Notes: generated from the letters alone by a model not told the origin. Positions 2,294-16,213 are shown, counted from the stretch's first letter. The stretch: DNA of 21,032 nt from Candidatus Helarchaeota ASGARD archaeon Hel_GB_B (GCA_005191425.1 SUPR01000064.1:1-21032), one strand, 5' to 3'. Program-made: numbers and translations.

Positions 2294-3427
2294 TTATATT
2301 TTATTTAATATATCAATAATTTTTTGGGTAATTTGTTCTGTTTTTGCAAATTTATTTTGTTGTTGATAAATTTTTGGGACTAGATCTTTAGGAATATAGC
2401 GCCAATTTTCTTTAAAATTTTCTAATAAAAGAAAATATTGTTTTATACTATCTTCTAATAATTTAGCTTCATCAAGTCCTAAATGTTCTAAAAGTAATTT
2501 TAAAGAAAGAATTGCAGCAATTGGGTTAGCTATACTAAGGCCTGCAATATCAGGAGCACTACCATGGACAGGTTCAAAGTATGGGTGTTTTGATCCAATA
2601 CAAGCACTAGGAGTTACTCCTAAACCACCAACTAATTCAGAACCTAAATCGCTTAAAATATCTCCATACTCATTTATAGTCAATAAAACATCTTGTTGTT
2701 CAGGAAATCTAATAAGTCTTCTAGCCATATCGTCAACATAATAGTCATTTATTTTAATTTTATATTTTTTAATATAATTTTGGGCAATAGAATAAGATAT
2801 TTCTTTAAATAATCCATCAGTAGCCATCATAACATTTGATTTGTGAACAATTGTTAGTTTACCTTGAAATCCTTGAGATTTACGTTCAACAGTTTTCTCA
2901 CAAGCTAATTTAGCTATACGTTTAGATTCATATTCAGTAATTATTTTTATGGCATAATGACCATTACTAGACTTAAAAAACCGTTGGTATTTATCTTCCG
3001 AGATAATTTCCTTCTTTACAAGTTCTTGAATATTGCCCTCACCTAGTCTAATTACACTATATAATCCTTCTAAATTTTCTCTAATAATTAGAAAATCAAT
3101 ATTATTAACATCTTTTAAGGGTGTTCTCAATCCTTTATATAGTTTACAAGGTCTAATATTTGCAAAATTATCAAGCCCAAATCGAAGATAGAGCAATACA
3201 TTTTTAGCTTTTGTATGAGTAGCTCCAAATAATATAGCATTTGAATCATCAATTGCTTCCTTGGTTTCTTGCGGGAACGTATCACCAAACATTTTTTCGG
3301 CTTGATCTCCAGCATATGCTTTTATTATCTCTATTTTTTGAGGTGCCAATTCAGTAAGAACTTTATATGCAGCATCAACTACTTCGATACCAATACCTTC
3401 TCCGCCAATTAAACAGATTTTTTTCAT
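2294..3427 (-). CDS. Isocitrate/isopropylmalate dehydrogenase family enzyme (LeuB- or AksF/homoisocitrate DH-like; NAD-type motif)
   Basis: GGEGIGIEV, LRFGLDNFANIRP, IRENLEGLY, VHKSNV..TDGLF, NEYGDILSD, FEPVHGSAPDIAG. Confidence 0.9.
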   Translation of the reverse strand: MKKICLIGGEGIGIEVVDAAYKVLTELAPQKIEIIKAYAGDQAEKMFGDTFPQETKEAIDDSNAILFGATHTKAKNVLLYLRFGLDNFANIRPCKLYKGLRTPLKDVNNIDFLIIRENLEGLYSVIRLGEGNIQELVKKEIISEDKYQRFFKSSNGHYAIKIITEYESKRIAKLACEKTVERKSQGFQGKLTIVHKSNVMMATDGLFKEISYSIAQNYIKKYKIKINDYYVDDMARRLIRFPEQQDVLLTINEYGDILSDLGSELVGGLGVTPSACIGSKHPYFEPVHGSAPDIAGLSIANPIAAILSLKLLLEHLGLDEAKLLEDSIKQYFLLLENFKENWRYIPKDLVPKIYQQQNKFAKTEQITQKIIDILNKI

Positions 3428-3470
3428 AATAAGACCAATTTAAATAATCATAAAGTTAAAAATTTTGAGA

Positions 3471-4631
3471 TTATTTAGTTAATTGTTTTATCTTATTTGC
3501 AATTGCATCGCCCACTTCACTTGTAGATGAGCTACCACCAAGATCATATGTCCTGATTTTACCTTCTTTCAATACTGCTTGAACTGCCTGATCAATTAAA
3601 TTTGAGCCCTTTTTTAACGTTGATTCGTCATTATTTTTCATTGATAACCAATCTAGCATCATTGCTCCGGCTAGAATTGTAGCAATTGGGTTAACAACAT
3701 TTTTTCCAGTATATTTAGGAGCACTTCCATGGAGAGGTTCGAACATTCCGTATTTGTCACCAACATTACCACTTGCAGCCATTCCGAGCGAACCCTGTAG
3801 TACTGCAGCTAGATCAGTCGCAATATCACCAAACATATTAGGTACAACACAAACATCAAACCATTCAGGTGTTCTAATTATCCACTGAGTAAACGCATCA
3901 ATAAAAGCATAATCTTGTTCTATTTCGGGATATTGAGGAGCGATCTCTTGATAAATTTTGCGAAACAATTTACAACCAGCAGTGACATTACTTTTATCGA
4001 CACAAGTGACTCTTAATTTTCCATCTTTTGGAGAACCTTTATTTCTCCGTTTACAATATTCAAATGCAAACTTTATAACACGTTCAGAACCTTTACGAGT
4101 AATAAGACGCACATCAGTTGCGATTTCAGTTTGACCGCCACGATTTAGACCACCATGAGTATCTGAATAAAGACCTTCTGTATTTTCTCTAATTGTTACA
4201 AAATCGACATTTTTAGGACTCCAAATATTGCGGAATTCTCCAGATATTTTGTGTTGAACCCCTTCAAAAAGTTTAGTTGGTCTAATATTTGCGTATAAGT
4301 CCAAACCAAATCGTAAGCCGAATAAGATATCTAATCCGACCATGCGTCCTGATGGATAAGAAACAGTTTTTCCTGTCTGTGGGTCAGTCCATCCAATTGC
4401 TCCTAATAGAATTGCATCGGCTTCATTTTTACATACATCAAAAACTTCTTTTGGCCATTCTTCTTTTTTTCCTGTTTTAAGATAATATTGTGCTCCACAT
4501 TCATATTCAATGAATTCAAAATTAATGTTATTTAGATTCTCTTCTACTGATTTTAAGACTTTTAACCCTTCATGTATGATTTCAGGACCAATTCCATCAC
4601 CAGGCAAAACTACTATTTTAAATTTTTTCAT
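3471..4631 (-). CDS. Isocitrate/isopropylmalate/tartrate dehydrogenase family enzyme (LeuB-like; KY coenzyme motif)
   Basis: LPGDGIGPEI, LRFGLDLYANIRP, IRENTEGLY, VDKSNV, NMFGDIATD, FEPLHGSAPKYTG, RTYDLGG. Confidence 0.9.
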   Translation of the reverse strand: MKKFKIVVLPGDGIGPEIIHEGLKVLKSVEENLNNINFEFIEYECGAQYYLKTGKKEEWPKEVFDVCKNEADAILLGAIGWTDPQTGKTVSYPSGRMVGLDILFGLRFGLDLYANIRPTKLFEGVQHKISGEFRNIWSPKNVDFVTIRENTEGLYSDTHGGLNRGGQTEIATDVRLITRKGSERVIKFAFEYCKRRNKGSPKDGKLRVTCVDKSNVTAGCKLFRKIYQEIAPQYPEIEQDYAFIDAFTQWIIRTPEWFDVCVVPNMFGDIATDLAAVLQGSLGMAASGNVGDKYGMFEPLHGSAPKYTGKNVVNPIATILAGAMMLDWLSMKNNDESTLKKGSNLIDQAVQAVLKEGKIRTYDLGGSSSTSEVGDAIANKIKQLTK

Positions 4632-4922: not shown

Positions 4923-6233
4923 TTAAATACCCAGAACTTGTTCGTATCCAGAAAGATCCATCAATCCATGACCAGAATGGTTAAAAACAATGACCTTTTT
5001 TTCGCCGGTTTCTTTACATTTTCGAGCTTCTACGATTGCATGATGAATTGCGTGAGCTGTTTCAGGAGCTGGGATTAAACCCTCAACTTTTGCAAAAAGA
5101 TCTGCCGATTGAAATATTTCTTCTTGTGGATAGGTTACAGACCTAATAAGGCCTTCATGGACAAATAAAGATGCCGAAGGTGCAGCACCATGATATCTTA
5201 ATCCACCTGCATGAATGGGTGGTGGTATAAAGTCGCAACCCAAGGTATACATTTTTAATAATGGAGTTGATTTTGCTGTATCACCGAAATCATATCTATA
5301 TTCGCCATTAGTCATCGAAGGGCATGCAGTAGGTTCGACCGCTACAATATCAATTTTCTTACACTCTTTTCGGAGAGATTTACCCAAAAAAGGATAACAA
5401 AAGCCTGAAAAATTTGAGCCACCACCGACACAACCGATCATTATATCTGGAACTTTGTCTATTTTTTCAAATTGTTTGACAACTTCTTCTCCAACAATGC
5501 TTTGGTGTAGAAGAACAAAGCTTAATACACTTCCAAGCGAATATTTTGCTGTAGGGTCTTTCATAGCAACTTCAATAGCTTCACTGATAGCTATGCCTAA
5601 AGAACCATTATATTTTGCTTTATCTTTCAAAAATTCTTTACCACATTCTGTTTGATCACTTGGACTTGCCACACAATCAGCGCCGTATAAGTTCATAATT
5701 ACCTTTCTGAGTGGTTTTTGTTCATAGCTTATTCTGACCATAAAGACTTTACATTTAATTCCAAATAAGGCACATGCATAAGACAGAGCAGAACCCCATT
5801 GTCCAGCGCCAGTTTCGGTAGTTAATGTTTCCAGCCCCTCTTTTGCTGCATAATAAGCTTGCGCAACAGCAGTGTTTGGTTTGTGACTGCCTGGAGGAGA
5901 CAAATCTTCTCTTTTATAATAAATTTCAGCTGGAGTATCCAAATATTTTTCTAACCTAACAGCTCGACATAAGGGTGACGGTCTTCCAAGACTATTCATA
6001 TAGATATCCAATAATTCATCGGGTATATCAATATATCTTTTATCACTGACTTCTTGTTTTATACATTCTACTGGAAACAATTCCATAAGGGGTTCAGGAG
6101 GCATTGGTTCTCTAGTTGCCGGGTTCAGAGGGGGAGGAAAAGGTACTGGAGAATCTACGGAAATATTGTACCATTTTCTTGGCATTTCATCAAGTGTTAA
6201 AATAACTCTATTTTTTTCGACCATTTTTATCAA
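4923..6233 (-). CDS. trpB2: Tryptophan synthase beta chain, type 2 (TrpB2); probable start ATG 6224
   Basis: PLP lysine motif GSHKPN, TTETGAGQWG, VGGGSNF, HAGGLRYHG, PAPETAHA and the long N-terminal WYNI extension typical of TrpB2. Confidence 0.95.
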   Translation of the reverse strand: MIKMVEKNRVILTLDEMPRKWYNISVDSPVPFPPPLNPATREPMPPEPLMELFPVECIKQEVSDKRYIDIPDELLDIYMNSLGRPSPLCRAVRLEKYLDTPAEIYYKREDLSPPGSHKPNTAVAQAYYAAKEGLETLTTETGAGQWGSALSYACALFGIKCKVFMVRISYEQKPLRKVIMNLYGADCVASPSDQTECGKEFLKDKAKYNGSLGIAISEAIEVAMKDPTAKYSLGSVLSFVLLHQSIVGEEVVKQFEKIDKVPDIMIGCVGGGSNFSGFCYPFLGKSLRKECKKIDIVAVEPTACPSMTNGEYRYDFGDTAKSTPLLKMYTLGCDFIPPPIHAGGLRYHGAAPSASLFVHEGLIRSVTYPQEEIFQSADLFAKVEGLIPAPETAHAIHHAIVEARKCKETGEKKVIVFNHSGHGLMDLSGYEQVLGI

Positions 6234-6360
6234 CTATACATATTACATTATCAAAATTTTTTAATTTTTATTTTTAAAATTTTTAAAAATTTATTAAAAT
6301 TCAATAAAATATTTTGTAACAAAAATTATTTATTAAAATCTGTTGAATATGACACTAATT

Positions 6361-6495
6361 TTAGTTATTCCAAGGCCATATAAAAGGAGTATCAGTGAAG
6401 TTTAAAAAAAAATCACTATTTACCGACTTTTTTCTAAAAATTCCGTTCTTTACTTTAAATCGTGTCATATATATCCTTTGGTGTTTATTATGCAT
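6361..6495 (-). CDS. Candidate Trp leader peptide (44 aa from ATG 6495, or 35 aa from ATG 6468): ...MTRFKVKNGIFRKKSVNSDFFLNFTDTPFIWPWNN
   Basis: Hand-translated. Two TGG codons near the stop; located in the 5' region of trpB2; flanked by a 9-bp inverted repeat (6347-6355 and 6462-6470). Confidence 0.45.
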   Translation of the reverse strand: MHNKHQRIYMTRFKVKNGIFRKKSVNSDFFLNFTDTPFIWPWNN

Positions 6496-6516
6496 TATTG
6501 TATTTTTTTTTTTAAT

Positions 6517-6536
6517 ATTGTCATTTTTTTGACAAT
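6517..6536. promoter_or_regulatory. Inverted repeat ATTGTCA-N6-TGACAAT (operator or 5' hairpin) in the divergent trpB2/ACT-regulator region
   Basis: Perfect 7-6-7 palindrome read directly from the sequence. Confidence 0.45.
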
Positions 6537-6558
6537 TATGTGGTTTTGGTTACATACA

Positions 6559-6577
6559 TTTATATTTAAACTTTACG
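6559..6577. promoter_or_regulatory. Putative TATA box (TTTAAATA on minus strand, 6563-6570) with purine-rich BRE-like flank; may serve both directions
   Basis: TTTATATTTAAA at 6559-6570. Assignment is weak in such AT-rich DNA. Confidence 0.3.
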
Positions 6578-6619
6578 GATATTAATATAGAAAACTAGTT
6601 TGAATAAATTGGTATAACA

Positions 6620-7189
6620 ATGTCGCTTAATAAAGATGATCTAGAAAATTTTTGGAAAATAATTAAGAACCTATTTAAGAAGAGCCCCAAAAAAATTGAA
6701 GTAATCAAGTTGCTATTGATGTCTGGTTTTTCAATTAAAAATAAAAAGATTTATTGCAATAATATAGAAATTCCCAATACTAGTATTGCAAGCGCTTTAA
6801 AAATAGATAGGAGGTCAGTAATTGGTACTATTGAGAAAATATATCCATCTAACAATGAGATTTCTAAGCTTAACGATGAAGATAAAAAAAATTTAGCTAT
6901 AATACAAAAGGTGTTGAATAATATTTTCCCCGTTGGAATCTTTGTTTGGGATAATAATAAGAAGGTAATTGAAGTTACTGCCGATTCAAAGGAATTTGGA
7001 ATAATATCAAATGTTACAAAATTTATTGCGGATGAAAAAATAAGTATAAGACAAATAATTGCTACTGACCCAGATTTAGACCTTAATCCGCGATTGACTA
7101 TATTTACAAACGAAGAGGTTCCTGGAGAAACTTTATCAAAAATTTTGGAAATAAAAGGAGTCTTAACAGCATCATATGGTAAACGATAA
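6620..7189 (+). CDS. ACT-domain regulator of amino-acid metabolism (COG2150-like)
   Basis: N-terminal GFSIK..KIYCNNIEIP...IA.ALKIDRRSV (HTH-like); C-terminal ACT-like ISIRQIIATDPDL..PRLTIFT..VPG. Confidence 0.85.
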   Translation: MSLNKDDLENFWKIIKNLFKKSPKKIEVIKLLLMSGFSIKNKKIYCNNIEIPNTSIASALKIDRRSVIGTIEKIYPSNNEISKLNDEDKKNLAIIQKVLNNIFPVGIFVWDNNKKVIEVTADSKEFGIISNVTKFIADEKISIRQIIATDPDLDLNPRLTIFTNEEVPGETLSKILEIKGVLTASYGKR

Positions 7190-7218
7190 ATTACTTTTAT
7201 TTCAAAATATTTTAAAAA

Positions 7219-7485
7219 TTATTTTATCAAATTAACTTTTGCTGTAACTATTGTAATAACGTCCAATTGCTCCAGAAATATGAATAAATAGGGAAAACCA
7301 TCACTTTTTCTTACTATATACCCATATCTAAATTCATCATTTTCAGATTCTTCAATAGTCGCAATAATTTCGCCTTCAATATAATCCCCAAACTTTTCTT
7401 TTGCATCTTCTTTCATGTCAAGCCCAAAAAAATCACCAGTAAATCTATAAAACTCCCAAAATTTATCGTGCTCTTTTAATTTCAT
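7219..7485 (-). CDS. Small acidic hypothetical protein
   Basis: 88 aa ORF with a GGTGA Shine-Dalgarno-like motif upstream of the ATG. Confidence 0.65.
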   Translation of the reverse strand: MKLKEHDKFWEFYRFTGDFFGLDMKEDAKEKFGDYIEGEIIATIEESENDEFRYGYIVRKSDGFPYLFIFLEQLDVITIVTAKVNLIK

Positions 7486-7808
7486 AGTAATTCATCACCA
7501 TAATTTTAGATTTAATAATAAAAATCTTAATTAAAAATTTTATTGTTTGGACTTTTTACTTAAATTGTAAAAAAAATCAATAAAACAAAAGATAATTTAA
7601 TTTAAAATTTGGATTAAACATTGAATTAAATAAATAAATTATTCTTAAAAGACCATACTCTATTTTAAGAAAATTAATAAATTTATCAAAAATAAAAAAA
7701 AATAATACGTGAGAAAAATCATATTTTTAAGATTGTTAGAAGATAAAAATGATAAGTTATTTGTATTTTAAAAAGATAAATGGTGGATTATGAGATAATG
7801 TTTTAGAT

Positions 7809-9440
7809 TTATTTTTTTCTAAATTTCATCAGATATAAATTCATTCCATTAATCATAGCTTGAATACTGGACATAACAATATCCGGATTAACAGCCCTAG
7901 CATTAATATAGTTTCCAAACATATCTTCGAGTTTTACTTTTACTCTTCCAAGTGCATCAGTACCACCGGTGATAGCATCTAAATGATATTCACTAAGGAA
8001 CAATTTTCCATATCCGAATTGTTCCCAAACTTTAGCTAATGCATTGTAAGATGCATCAACAGGGCCAACACCAATATCGGCTGCAACTTTCTCCGCCCAA
8101 TCATTATTTGTCTTTACTTTTAACCTAATAGTAGCAGATGGTGTGACATTTTTACCACATATTACGGATAATTCCTCTAGTTTTATTGTTTGTTCTTCAT
8201 TTGGTACCTCACCAATTACAGATATGGCAATTTCGTATAAGTCCATATCAGTAATTTTTTTACCCTTGTCGCCAATTTTTTTAACGCGATTTCTGATTTC
8301 ATTGAATTGGACGTCATTGACTATTATCCCGAAACTTTCCAGTTTGGCACCTAATGAATGACCGCCGGTATGTTTACCAACTTCTATTGATTGTTCAAGG
8401 ATGTCAGTCAAGGTATCTTTACGGTTGATCCCAATTAATTCAGGAGTTAATGGCTCATATGTCCTAGGGTTTTCAATTACTGCATGAGCATGAATACCAC
8501 TTTCGTGTTTAAATGCATTTGTTCCGACCATTGGAAAATTAACTGGAATTTCTAAGCCACTAAGTTTTTCAACTAATTTAGAGGTTTCATAAAGGTATTT
8601 ATATTTAATATTTGTAGAAATACCATATAATGCATAAAGTGACATAACTACTTCTTCCATTGCTGCATTTCCAGTGCGCTCGCCAATTCCAAGGACTGTT
8701 GTTTGGACTTGAGAAGCGCCCATTTCGACTCCAGCCAATGTATTTGCCGTTGCAAGCCCAAAATCATTATGACAGTGTACAGATACTCTGACACCCTTTG
8801 GAAACTGCTCAATATTTTTCTGAATAATATAAGAATAAACTCTTGGAACAACGGTACCAACAGTATCAGGAATATTAATTCGAGTAGCGCCAGCTTCAAT
8901 TGCCATTTTATTGGCTTTAATTAAGAAATCTAAATCGCTTCTAGTAGCATCTTCTGCTGAAAATTCTATCTTTTTTCCAAAATGTTCTTTGGCATATTCA
9001 ATTTCAGTGGTAATAGCTGAAAGAACTTGTTCCGGCGTCATTTTTAATTTTTCTTTCATATGAAGTTCGGATGTGGCAATAAAAACGTGTATGGCGTCCA
9101 TATCACATTCAATAACTTTATCAATATCTTCACGATTTATTCTCGCTAGTCCGATTATTTCAGCATCTAAACCTAATTTAGAAATTTCCTTACAAGCTAA
9201 ATAATCACCTTCGGATACAATTGGCATACCTGCTTCAATAATGTCCACGCCTAATTTGTTTAATTGGGTCGCTATTTGAATTTTTTCTTGAAGAGTAAAA
9301 GAAATTCCAGGTGTCTGTTCACCATCTCGTAAAGTCGTGTCAAAAATATAGACTTTTTCAGGCAAATTCAAATTTTTAAGCAAATCTTTAATGTGCTGCG
9401 ATACTAAAATTTTATCAATGTTTTTACTTTCAGACATCAC
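7809..9440 (-). CDS. leuA: 2-isopropylmalate synthase / (R)-citramalate synthase family (LeuA/CimA) with C-terminal regulatory domain
   Basis: FDTTLRDGEQTPG, HCHNDFGLA, GIGERTGNA, FKHESGIH, GVGPVDA, ITGGTDA; GAGGT SD upstream. LeuA and CimA cannot be separated by eye. Confidence 0.85.
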   Translation of the reverse strand: MMSESKNIDKILVSQHIKDLLKNLNLPEKVYIFDTTLRDGEQTPGISFTLQEKIQIATQLNKLGVDIIEAGMPIVSEGDYLACKEISKLGLDAEIIGLARINREDIDKVIECDMDAIHVFIATSELHMKEKLKMTPEQVLSAITTEIEYAKEHFGKKIEFSAEDATRSDLDFLIKANKMAIEAGATRINIPDTVGTVVPRVYSYIIQKNIEQFPKGVRVSVHCHNDFGLATANTLAGVEMGASQVQTTVLGIGERTGNAAMEEVVMSLYALYGISTNIKYKYLYETSKLVEKLSGLEIPVNFPMVGTNAFKHESGIHAHAVIENPRTYEPLTPELIGINRKDTLTDILEQSIEVGKHTGGHSLGAKLESFGIIVNDVQFNEIRNRVKKIGDKGKKITDMDLYEIAISVIGEVPNEEQTIKLEELSVICGKNVTPSATIRLKVKTNNDWAEKVAADIGVGPVDASYNALAKVWEQFGYGKLFLSEYHLDAITGGTDALGRVKVKLEDMFGNYINARAVNPDIVMSSIQAMINGMNLYLMKFRKK

Positions 9441-9489
9441 TAATTACCTCTTTTATTTTGTTAAAACTATTAACAATTAATAAATTCAT
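9430..9489 (-). CDS. Candidate uORF MNLLIVNSFNKIKEVISDV overlapping the leuA start out of frame
   Basis: Hand-translated. ATG 9489 lies inside the 3' arm of a hairpin; TGA at 9430-9432 lies just inside leuA. Confidence 0.3.
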   Translation of the reverse strand: MNLLIVNSFNKIKEVISDV

Positions 9490-9549
9490 TCCAAAGTTCT
9501 CTATGTTAGAAAAAAAGCCAAAAATTTTACCGAACTTTGAGAACTGAAT
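9484..9549 (-). promoter_or_regulatory. Leader hairpin upstream of leuA (16 bp, two single-nt bulges, 32-nt loop)
   Basis: mRNA ATTCAGTTCTCAAAGTTC (9549-9532) pairs with GAACTTTGGAATGAAT (9499-9484). Confidence 0.55.
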
Positions 9550-9556
9550 CCCTCAT
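9527..9556 (-). CDS. Candidate leader peptide MRDSVLKVR covering the 5' arm of the leuA leader hairpin
   Basis: Hand-translated ATG AGG GAT TCA GTT CTC AAA GTT CGG TAA; preceded by a minimal ATG GTG TAA (9568-9560). Confidence 0.3.
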   Translation of the reverse strand: MRDSVLKVR

Positions 9557-9722
9557 TTTTTACACCATTAATAGTTGTACGAATAAAAATTGAAAATGTT
9601 TTAAAAAATATAAACTTTTTGCTTCTTTAATTTAAAAGTCAAATTCTTTTTTACTTTTAAAACTGCAAGGGAAAATTCAATAGACCCGCAAATTTAAATA
9701 AATTAAGTAAATAGTTTTTAAT

Positions 9723-14609: not shown

Positions 14610-15713
14610 TTAGTTCTTTAGAATAAATCCAAATTAATGCCTTTTAAATATTAGTTCTAAAATTGCACATCTTTTCTTTATAAATATGGACATTTTCTTT
14701 TAATAAATTATAATTTTATAATTTTATTGGTTATCACTCTTAAATTTAAACTTGAAAAACAACATAAAAATTTTAAAAAAGTGCTAAAAATAGAATAAGA
14801 GAAAATTATTTAGTTAATTAAAGAATATTTGAAAAAATAAAATTATAACTAAATAAGAAAAACATGATCAAAAAAAATACTATACTATTGTTCGATAATA
14901 ATTTTTTTAATTTTATTGTAGAGAATTTAAAAAAAGATTGAGAATTAAAAGGGTTATTAATTATTATTTCTAAGGGGTTTTACCAAATTTGGATTCTAAG
15001 TCCGAACTAAATTAAGAATTATCTCCTTGTAAATTTATTTCTAGCTTTTTAATAGAGAATGCAATGTTTGATACTAAAATGCCATTATCTTTTTGCAACA
15101 TTAGATATCTGTAAATTGCATTTATTTACATTACTGTTATCATTATATACATTTTTTTTTAATATTTTCTTTACCCCTAATCGGTAATAACTGGCTTGAT
15201 GTCTGTCTTAATAAATGATATAATGGTCTTATAATCACAAAAGTTCTATCTATCGTAGACTTGCACCATAACTTAAATTATTTATATATTCCAATTTCAA
15301 GCAATGTCAAGCAATGTCTGAGTTATCAACTTGGTGTATATAGAACCTGAATTTTGCAATTCCTTGCAGATTGTTTTATTACTCTTATAATCTTGCAGTA
15401 AACCATATCTTTCAATGGCTTCTTGTGTTCTTATGCCACGATATCGGCATTATTTTTAATTAATTTTTAATCTATATTATATAATCTTTGTTGATGTACA
15501 TTCAATATCTTCTTTGAAGTATCATCTCTTACTATCTTGCGCTTTTTATCATAATTTCAAGAATGGTTTAACTAAATTGTATTTATACGAAAATGAGATT
15601 CCCGATTCCAATTATCAAATTATTTATGTAGACAATGAAATTAAATGGACAATACAACCTAAAAAAGATACTGAAAAGATGTTGGCCCCTGTTTACCCTT
15701 ATTTTAATTTAAC

Positions 15714-15944
15714 ATGAGCTAGAAGAATAAAAAAAGTATAATAGGTGGTGATAGGACTCTCTCTTCGTTGTTGATGGGTATTAAAAGCTGGAGCGCTACC
15801 CTTGCAACTATTGAAGAGTATAAGGAAACGATATTAAAATAATCTGCAAAGGAAAATTTAAAGGCATTTGATATCATCAAAAAATTGGAGAAACACAGGA
15901 CGATTTTAGAAATTATAATAAGTCAGTTTGATAGAAAAACTTAA
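15714..15944 (+). pseudogene. Probable gene remnant, 77 codons with in-frame TAG (15720) and TAA (15840)
   Basis: MS*KNKKSIIGGDRTLSSLLMGIKSWSATLATIEEYKETILK*SAKENLKAFDIIKKLEKHRTILEIIISQFDRKT*. Composition is protein-like and helical; family not recognised. Confidence 0.3.
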
Positions 15945-16213
15945 ATATTTTAAAATAAAAGTGTAAATTTCAGAAAAATTCAAGGACTTTATTTATAGAG
16001 GGTTTATAACTTCAATGAAATTATTAACCTAATGAAAAAACTTGCCTTGTGCTCTAAAAAGGCTTTCTTATAATAAGGAGGAAAGAGTAATCCTTTCCAA
16101 TGACACCGCTCAGTCTTTGTTGGTTGAAATTTTGAAATGATAATTAGCCTTGCAAAATTTAATAAGATAAAAAATATAATAATAATTAAAGGATGAATAA
16201 AGAATGAAATAAA

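Follow-up and report, generated by a model that had tools for sequence, protein, structure and literature searches.

The trpB2–leuA locus and its upstream reading frames

We analyzed a stretch of 21,032 nucleotides from the Asgard archaeon Candidatus Helarchaeota Hel_GB_B (GCA_005191425.1, SUPR01000064.1:1-21032; hereafter the window), which is contig C145 of a 3.5-Mb genome (G000) with 28% GC and 93.7% completeness. Close homologues bear the name Candidatus Helarchaeota and more distant ones that of Promethearchaeota or Lokiarchaeota, which places the host among the Asgard archaea. Our subject is the set of short upstream open reading frames (uORFs) that precede two genes of amino acid metabolism, both on the minus strand: trpB2 (4923–6224), encoding a stand-alone TrpB-like pyridoxal phosphate enzyme, and leuA (7809–9437), encoding a 2-isopropylmalate synthase with the LeuA allosteric domain. 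The gene of a TrpY-like regulator lies between them on the plus strand (6620–7189). We suggest that the window contains two separate leader-peptide sensors, one before each of the two minus-strand genes, and we put the probability of this reading at about 65%. What argues for it is the pattern of conservation: because cognate codons, reading frame, Shine-Dalgarno sequence (SD) and start codons are retained, the uORFs are best understood as translated sensors that would act in cis.

A first-pass annotation, made from the sequence of the window, had located four uORFs at this locus, and all four are found where it placed them: one of 9 aa (6524–6495) and one of 44 aa (6495–6361) before trpB2, and one of 9 aa (9556–9527) and one of 19 aa (9489–9430) before leuA. 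The names it gave to the two genes also hold, that of trpB2 by a match to NF009057 (E 2e-202) and that of leuA by its HMGL-like and LeuA_dimer domains. It had further described both upstream regions as unusually long and as sharing a parallel architecture, a 9-aa uORF followed by a longer one. Neither description survives comparison with the rest of the genome: the intergenic gaps are 395 bp (trpB2) and 285 bp (leuA) against a median of 331 bp for the divergent gene pairs of the genome, a 9-aa uORF is present in 25% of those upstream regions that are at least 250 nt long, and a different member of the pair is conserved at each gene. The 9-aa uORF of trpB2 and the matching 9-aa lengths, which the annotation itself had allowed might be coincidental, are best read as chance.

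The abundance of such frames deserves attention in its own right. There are 6861 ATG uORFs in 2048 upstream regions of this genome, and 21% of long regions contain a uORF of at least 40 aa; these numbers favor an explanation in which all the uORFs discussed here are chance frames in AT-rich intergenic DNA. A window-specific uORF with a W-F-W sequence on the strand opposite trpB2 and an unconserved Leu/Val-rich uORF before an HMGL paralogue, both described below, point the same way. Chance suits the trpB2 9-aa uORF and the leuA uORF with an L-L-I-V sequence, but for the uORFs at 6495–6361 and 9556–9527 it is contradicted by the cross-control between the two genes, by sequence shuffles and by conservation in nine of nine genomes, and as an account of all the uORFs we consider it very improbable.

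For the comparative analysis we used G001 (same genus as the window), G002 to G006, the metagenomic relative L064, and further relatives such as L063 and L031 (a third species of the genus), assigned to families within Lokiarchaeia that we label f1 to f5. The window belongs to f1, and f3 falls within the same order. The Helarchaeales set used for leuA comprises nine genomes from three families.

A tryptophan-codon uORF before trpB2, beside a TrpY-like regulator

The 44-codon uORF of trpB2 (6361–6495, minus strand) ends in I-W-P-W-N-N-stop. Its two tryptophan (Trp) codons, at 6378–6376 and 6372–6370, stand 5 and 3 codons before the stop codon (6363–6361), which itself lies 137 nt 5' of the trpB2 ATG (6224); the W-P-W core, 6378–6370, reads TGGCCTTGG. 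An open frame running from the ATG to the first Trp codon is equalled or surpassed in 0.17% of shuffles for the window, and in 0.67% and 0.84% for two other species. The leaders of G001 and L064 no longer align with that of the window, yet a uORF of 29–40 codons occupies the same place in both, ending in SWLYWRKL-stop (G001) and FTWHWH-stop (L064). Three diverged genus-level species have therefore retained a uORF ending in W-x(1-2)-W whose remaining peptide is unalignable, and the spacing between the Trp codons varies among species by exactly 3 nt, with the frame preserved (TGGCCTTGG versus TGGCTGTATTGG).

The same arrangement extends well beyond the genus. Across Lokiarchaeia, 19 of 30 trpB2 loci are preceded by a uORF with 2–5 Trp codons near its stop, and 22 of 30 when GTG and TTG starts are included. 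As a cross-control, a clustered-Trp uORF precedes leuA in 2 of 30 loci, and W-x-W occurs in 19 of the 6861 uORFs of the window's genome. The trpB2 leaders of f4 are peptides of 16–21 codons with ends of the type FWRWQWPWRF-stop, those of f3 end in WRWQWCWRWQ-stop and FFWCWQ-stop, and those of f5 are peptides of ~30 codons ending in TWPWH-stop, with single-contig f5 genomes among the carriers of the W-P-W type. The window shares with f4 and f5 the gene, the position and the TGGCCTTGG core, which f3 has as well, the uORF of the f4/f5 type lying 115–190 nt 5' of trpB2. It differs from them in having only two Trp codons, a longer uORF (44 codons) and a co-occurring TrpY-like regulator. A hairpin across the stop codon or starting at it, followed by U-rich tracts, is present in f4 (GGCG/CGCC) and f5 (GCUCUAG/CUAGAGC); the window lacks both this hairpin and the conserved downstream block TTGAATTCCAAT, of which only a degenerate ATTGAATTTTAAT is seen at 6305–6293. 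A long-range helix (CATTGGA:TCCAAT) considered for the f4 leaders showed one compensatory change and several mismatches, and was not adopted. The 44-codon uORF of the window belongs, in a weakened form, to a family of Trp uORFs that spans the class.

Several further features mark the trpB2 leader. The peptide of the 9-aa uORF (6495–6524, minus strand) is not conserved. The stop codon of this uORF shares a nucleotide with the ATG of the Trp uORF (TAATG), and a predicted hairpin, AUUGUCA-A6-UGACAAU (6536–6517), takes in its own AUG. A similar overlap between a 9-aa uORF and the long Trp uORF is found in G001 (ATGA; L006:6397-6400), where the short peptide is unrelated to that of the window; no overlap is seen in L064. 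The overlap in the window and in G001 hints at coupled translation. A predicted long-range helix (6346–6474; arms 6474–6459 and 6360–6346) encloses codons 10–44 of the Trp uORF, with a 3' arm that begins 1 nt past the stop codon; its sequence is not conserved among relatives. In the AT-rich spacer before trpB2, a T5 run (6321–6325, minus strand) is a candidate site of oligo-U termination. Runs of T5–T7 also occur in the trpB2 spacers of relatives, but they are to be expected often at so high an AT content, and the T5 of the window is unconserved. Farther upstream, an AT-rich TATA region ACATTTATATTTAAACTTT (6556–6574), with a core ACATTTAAACTT that is kept in G002, G004 and G006, is likely a promoter zone, shared or bidirectional, that serves both the TrpY-like gene and the trpB2 leader. 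A plus-strand 31-aa uORF with W-F-W (6490–6585) runs across this likely TATA region of the regulator gene; it starts back-to-back with the Trp uORF at a common ATGCAT palindrome and stops 34 nt short of the TrpY-like start. It is absent in G001, L063 and L064, and is probably a chance frame. Its W-F-W codons supply a second, plus-strand copy of TGG-N3-TGG, a pattern that we considered as a DNA operator and rejected, the second copy being specific to the window.

The regulator encoded divergently from trpB2 (6620–7189, plus strand; HTH and ACT type) matches the NCBIfam model TrpY_fam (NF053754) at E 5e-38 over model positions 1–160 of 163, with 130.6 bits, below the curated cut-off of 180. A PDB sequence search with this protein found no solved relative. 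The first-pass annotation had seen here a COG2150-type ACT regulator flanked by the two amino acid genes. The gene is real, its ACT match is weak (E 0.019) and it is better described as TrpY-like; a connection to leuA was not supported. The divergent pairing with trpB2 is found in all seven loci of f1 and f2 (the window, G001, G002, G004, G006, L063 and L064), whether leuA is nearby or not, and we found the gene only in these two families. The regulator is tied to trpB2, not to leuA, and is probably a second layer of control.

Its setting resembles that of TrpY in Methanothermobacter thermautotrophicus, which is reported to bind "TRP box" sequences (PMC6737238): in both cases the gene of a small regulator faces away from a trp gene, the promoters overlap (here, probably), and TGTACA-like boxes lie between the two. 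The differences are that the protein studied here scores below the NCBIfam cut-off, that its target would be a lone trpB2 rather than trpEGCFBAD, and that its operator is a candidate one; moreover, the TrpY homologue of T. kodakarensis does not regulate trp (PMC6737238). Hexamers of the T(G/A)TACA type occur at 5.5 per kb in the seven intergenic regions between the TrpY-like gene and trpB2, six-fold more than in the background (0.9 per kb); the window holds one. The TRP box sequence we take to be TGTACA, and a hexamer resembling it, TGTATA (6235–6240, minus strand), is a candidate operator of the TrpY-like regulator, 12 nt 5' of the trpB2 ATG.

These observations raise the possibility that control is exerted by transcription factors only, with the TrpY-like repressor acting at a proximal trpB2 promoter, the Trp uORF of the genus a functionless relic, and leuA under an unknown factor that binds a conserved DNA block. 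The invariable pairing of regulator and trpB2, the enrichment of TRP-box-like hexamers and the one so close to the trpB2 ATG are all in line with this, as is the number of Trp codons, which falls from 4–5 (f4 and G003) to 2 (f1) and to 0–1 (f2) where the TrpY-like gene is present. At L031:4100-4400, where one gene of the Iso_dh family is also missing, trpB2 is a pseudogene remnant (its start ATG changed to ATA, and truncated after ~90 codons) and the regulator gene is intact, which again suits this explanation. However, the frame and both Trp codons have been retained in three species with otherwise unalignable leaders, and the leuA block, as shown below, does not behave as an operator. We regard it as unlikely that transcription factors account for the whole of the control. 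Nor are the Trp codons merely an operator for the TrpY-like regulator, because Trp-rich uORFs are present as well in those families in which we found no TrpY-like gene. Given that the TrpY-like gene is paired with trpB2 in f1 and f2 only, that the uORFs of f2 have 0–1 Trp codons and that the hexamers are enriched, we suggest that trpB2 is under both kinds of control in the genus of the window and that the repressor is gradually taking the place of the leader.

As to the gene itself, the 93.7%-complete genome gave no match to the trpA, trpC or trpE families. Therefore, trpB2 is the only Trp-forming step found there, and its product is probably a lone, indole-salvaging enzyme. Of 121 genomes in the class, 104 have trpB2; together with the lack of trpA, trpC and trpE here, this suggests that indole salvage, and not de novo Trp synthesis, is widespread. 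Directly 3' of trpB2 stands a tandem pair of Iso_dh-family genes (isopropylmalate/isocitrate/homoisocitrate dehydrogenase type; 2294–4631, minus strand), in an order kept in G001, L063 and L065.

A conserved mini-uORF before leuA

Relatives have the same leuA start as the window (ATG, 9437), which is preceded by a Shine-Dalgarno sequence, GAGGT (9450–9446). The 9-codon uORF MRDSVLKVR (9527–9556, minus strand) lies 89 nt 5' of leuA and has one Leu and two Val codons. Its conserved positions are GAT (9550–9548), GTT (9544–9542) and CTC (9541–9539), the last a rare codon that makes up 4% of the Leu codons of the genome, in which a tRNA-Leu(GAG) gene is present. An SD-like TGGTG (9563–9567) stands 6 nt 5' of the uORF AUG; in the alignment, relatives have AAGGTGA with a spacing of 6–9 nt. 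In all nine Helarchaeales genomes the element consists of an SD-like sequence, a start codon, an optional extra codon, GAT-NNN-GTT-CTC and a variable tail, for a total of 8–14 codons. The start codon is ATG in f1 and G003, GTG in G005 and TTG in f2, and in G001 it is shifted by one codon with the frame kept. The element stays directly 5' of leuA despite rearranged flanking genes between families. An 88-aa protein of no known family (window 7219–7485, minus strand; L078, L080 and L082), conserved within the taxonomic order at 57–81% identity, is encoded 3' of leuA in f1, and divergently 5' of leuA in f2 and f3; because this gene changes sides, the locus has evidently been rearranged around the leuA leader.

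Upstream of the uORF, a TATA-like TTTATAT (9608–9614, minus strand) that is kept in G001 and L031 would place the RNA start near 9585 and yield a leuA leader of ~150 nt. Downstream of it, a U7 tract (9510–9516), 10 nt past the uORF stop codon, is a candidate intrinsic (oligo-U) terminator; each of the four f1 species has a T7–T8 run 4–16 nt beyond the stop codon, and f3 has a T5–T6 run. The complement of the uORF core, GAGAACTTTGG, is found at 9491–9501, and a predicted helix between the two would enclose the U-tract (fold z −0.8). Similar core complements occur in G001, L031 and G006, in differing registers and without covariation. When the four leuA leaders were folded together with RNAalifold, the only invariant pairing was between the U-tract and the SD, with nil covariation, and we did not take it as a conserved switch. 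In the G001 leader (L006:9640-9710, minus strand), a ~22-nt repeat GAATTATAYACCATTATTTRA is present three times in tandem, after the U-tract and before the leuA Shine-Dalgarno sequence; there is none in the window.

Could the element be something other than a reading frame? A structured or protein-binding RNA motif (GGAUNNNGUUCUC plus the U-tract) with an incidental frame, and no sensing of Leu by translation, is an explanation that draws on the near lack of synonymous variation in GAT, GTT and CTC among the nine genomes and on a complementary segment 3' of the core that could pair with it, in the window as well as in G001, L031 and G006. Against it, all nine of nine genomes have AAGGTGA at the distance typical of an SD and a start codon in frame, ATG, GTG and TTG replace one another, and the start of G001 has moved by exactly one codon; the complement, for its part, changes register between species, with nil covariation and a z of −0.8. 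We rate it as rather improbable, slightly more so than control by transcription factors alone. The latter fares no better at leuA: the conserved block has a Shine-Dalgarno sequence, a start at constant position but of changing type, and variable stops, which are traits of a reading frame and not of an operator. Its core motif has no second occurrence in the genome, and for this reason a repeated operator was rejected. The reading as a translated leader peptide accommodates these traits.

The other leuA uORF, which the first-pass annotation had noted for its codons, is a different case. This 19-aa frame (9430–9489, minus strand), which starts with MNLLIV and overlaps the leuA start, has no counterpart in G001 or L064, and the overlapping uORF of L031 is without Leu enrichment; its L-L-I-V sequence is not conserved and it is probably chance. 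Of the two longer uORFs singled out by the annotation for their cognate codons, only the one with W-P-W thus belongs to a class-wide family. In sister families, however, 20 of 23 leuA genes are preceded by a uORF of 31–40 codons that ends in 4–7 Leu codons, with its stop 87–101 nt before the gene; in the control, a Leu-run uORF is found at 1 of 30 trpB2 loci and among 26 of the 6861 background uORFs. The leader of the window differs from these in being a mini-uORF rather than a Leu run.

Proposed leader-peptide attenuation in Lokiarchaeia

Within this genome, the leader system is confined to trpB2 and leuA. We looked for conserved cognate uORFs upstream of hisG, ilvC, two leuCD-like loci, argG, an ilvB-like gene and three HMGL paralogues, and there were none. 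The lineage-wide mechanism of amino acid sensing envisaged by the first-pass annotation thus has its counterpart in the cognate uORFs before trpB2 and leuA across the class, and does not extend to these other genes. A genome-wide search for uORFs with amino acid runs gave ten best candidates that precede unrelated genes, including those for glutamate dehydrogenase, STT3, PadR and GNAT proteins; the genes downstream of the other W-x-W uORFs were judged not trp-like by eye, no Pfam scan having been made of them. A Leu/Val-rich 24-aa uORF (containing NLLLKKVLLVVC; G000:C112:22355-22430, minus strand) that overlaps the SD of an HMGL-family paralogue (isopropylmalate/citramalate/homocitrate synthase type) was set aside, being absent in six relatives. 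Elsewhere in the window, 1.6 kb (14610–16213; GC 19–28%) are without an ORF of at least 80 aa on either strand, and searches detected neither a tRNA nor an Rfam family in them.

We infer the following course of events, including translation of the uORFs and their co-transcription with the genes, and also how, and in which direction, expression would respond. At trpB2, the gene would be transcribed with a leader of ~300 nt that holds the 44-codon uORF. When charged tRNA-Trp is scarce, ribosomes would pause at the two Trp codons, and the pause would alter the downstream RNA, most likely by way of premature termination in the U-rich spacer or of the helix right after the stop codon, with trpB2 being expressed as a result. 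The divergently encoded TrpY-like repressor would add control by a transcription factor. At leuA, the ~150-nt leader would present a 9-codon uORF with a strong SD and an invariant Asp-x-Val-Leu core, in which Leu is encoded by CUC, with the U7 tract within 10 nt, and the passage of transcription, or of the transcript, beyond the U-tract into leuA would depend on the occupancy of this mini-ORF by ribosomes. Archaeal RNA polymerase can terminate at oligo-T/oligo-U sequences without a hairpin, and the termination factor FttA is involved in termination. Oligo-U termination of this archaeal kind, possibly assisted by a factor, would have to take the place of a hairpin switch.

A number of observations weigh against two translated sensors. 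No SD is evident before the 44-codon uORF; the trpB2 spacer (137 nt, ~12% GC) could conceal a proximal promoter; and an alignment of six Helarchaeales trpB2 spacers has no conserved block. L063, a genus-level relative, has a single Trp codon, and the uORFs of f2 have 0–1 in an intergenic region of only ~100 bp; the Trp element may be decaying where the TrpY-like gene is present. The leuA mini-uORF has one Leu codon and almost no synonymous change, which also fits a motif acting at the RNA level. In the genus, no conserved alternative hairpins of the terminator/antiterminator kind and no covariation were found at the uORF ends, and Rfam at the gathering threshold recognized zero families anywhere in the window, the Trp_leader and Leu_leader models included. 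The folds themselves are weak: that of the trpB2 leader has a z of −2.0, with an equally good fold in 3 of 100 shuffles, and the leuA 9-aa uORF is paired in a minimum-energy fold at z −0.8. The first-pass annotation had placed a uORF start codon in a paired segment at each gene, and predicted folds do occur at both 9-aa uORFs, the leuA one at this low score. Finally, the relatives compared are non-independent samples.

A product acting in trans would be another way to explain conserved ORFs, the uORFs then encoding micropeptides that serve as subunits of enzymes or regulators; bacterial leader peptides with roles in trans are known (peTrpL, PMC7298713). However, only the cognate residues are conserved, length and other sequence drift, and the position right before the cognate gene is retained through rearrangements. 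We give trans-acting micropeptides very little weight, and continue to regard the uORFs as sensors acting in cis.

Leader-peptide attenuation is a textbook bacterial mechanism. Like the E. coli trpL and leuL attenuators, the elements described here are short ORFs before a gene of amino acid biosynthesis, with cognate codons clustered before the stop (W-x-W here, runs of 4–7 Leu in the sister families), a U-rich tract after the ORF and a rare Leu codon. Unlike them, they are found in an archaeal host, give no Rfam matches and have no conserved terminator/antiterminator hairpin pair that we could find in the genus, and the leuA uORF of the window, in contrast to leuL, has a single Leu codon in a conserved core of six codons. 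Clustering of the trpL/leuL type is accordingly clear in the trpB2 uORF (two Trp in the last five codons) and weak in the leuA copy of the window. There is also a resemblance to the leaderless poly-Cys uORFs of mycobacteria (bioRxiv 10.1101/834739), in which, as we propose here, a very short conserved upstream peptide lets ribosome occupancy govern the downstream gene. With their short fixed core, such uORFs may also resemble tnaC and the erm, cat and cmlA leaders, from which the uORFs of the window differ in that nascent-peptide arrest or a ligand is not evidenced at them. The first-pass annotation had seen a parallel with uORF control in eukaryotes. This did not hold up, as scanning and reinitiation of the GCN4 type are not matched: initiation would be SD-led at both the leuA uORF and leuA, and what is conserved is the cognate codons, a design of bacterial type.

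Our full-text literature search found no report of leader-peptide attenuation in archaea, and TrpY is essentially the only known archaeal control of Trp genes (PMC6737238). The Helarchaeales variants are new: a two-Trp leader beside a TrpY-like regulator, and an Asp-x-Val-Leu mini-uORF with a U-tract. A broader history can be sketched tentatively, at odds that we would place short of even. Attenuation may be ancestral and widespread in Lokiarchaeia and operate without a hairpin switch, in such a way that termination, whether at oligo-U or dependent on a factor, is gated by the position of the ribosome on a uORF with cognate codons. In that case, Helarchaeales would show its turnover, with the Trp leader shrinking under a TrpY-type repressor and the Leu-run leader replaced by a minimal Asp-x-Val-Leu mini-uORF, perhaps a sensor of rare-codon or nascent-peptide type.

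If the uORFs do sense charged tRNA, the prokaryotes most closely related to eukaryotes would make regulatory use of the coupling of transcription and translation, and archaeal termination at U-tracts could be conditional. The leaders would also serve as easy markers of amino acid regulons in uncultured Asgard genomes, and should any of the single-contig f5 genomes with a W-P-W leader belong to a cultured strain, the idea could be tested at the bench. In Helarchaeales, the comparison points to an apparent evolutionary hand-over from leader peptide to transcription factor, together with a new, minimal form of leader.

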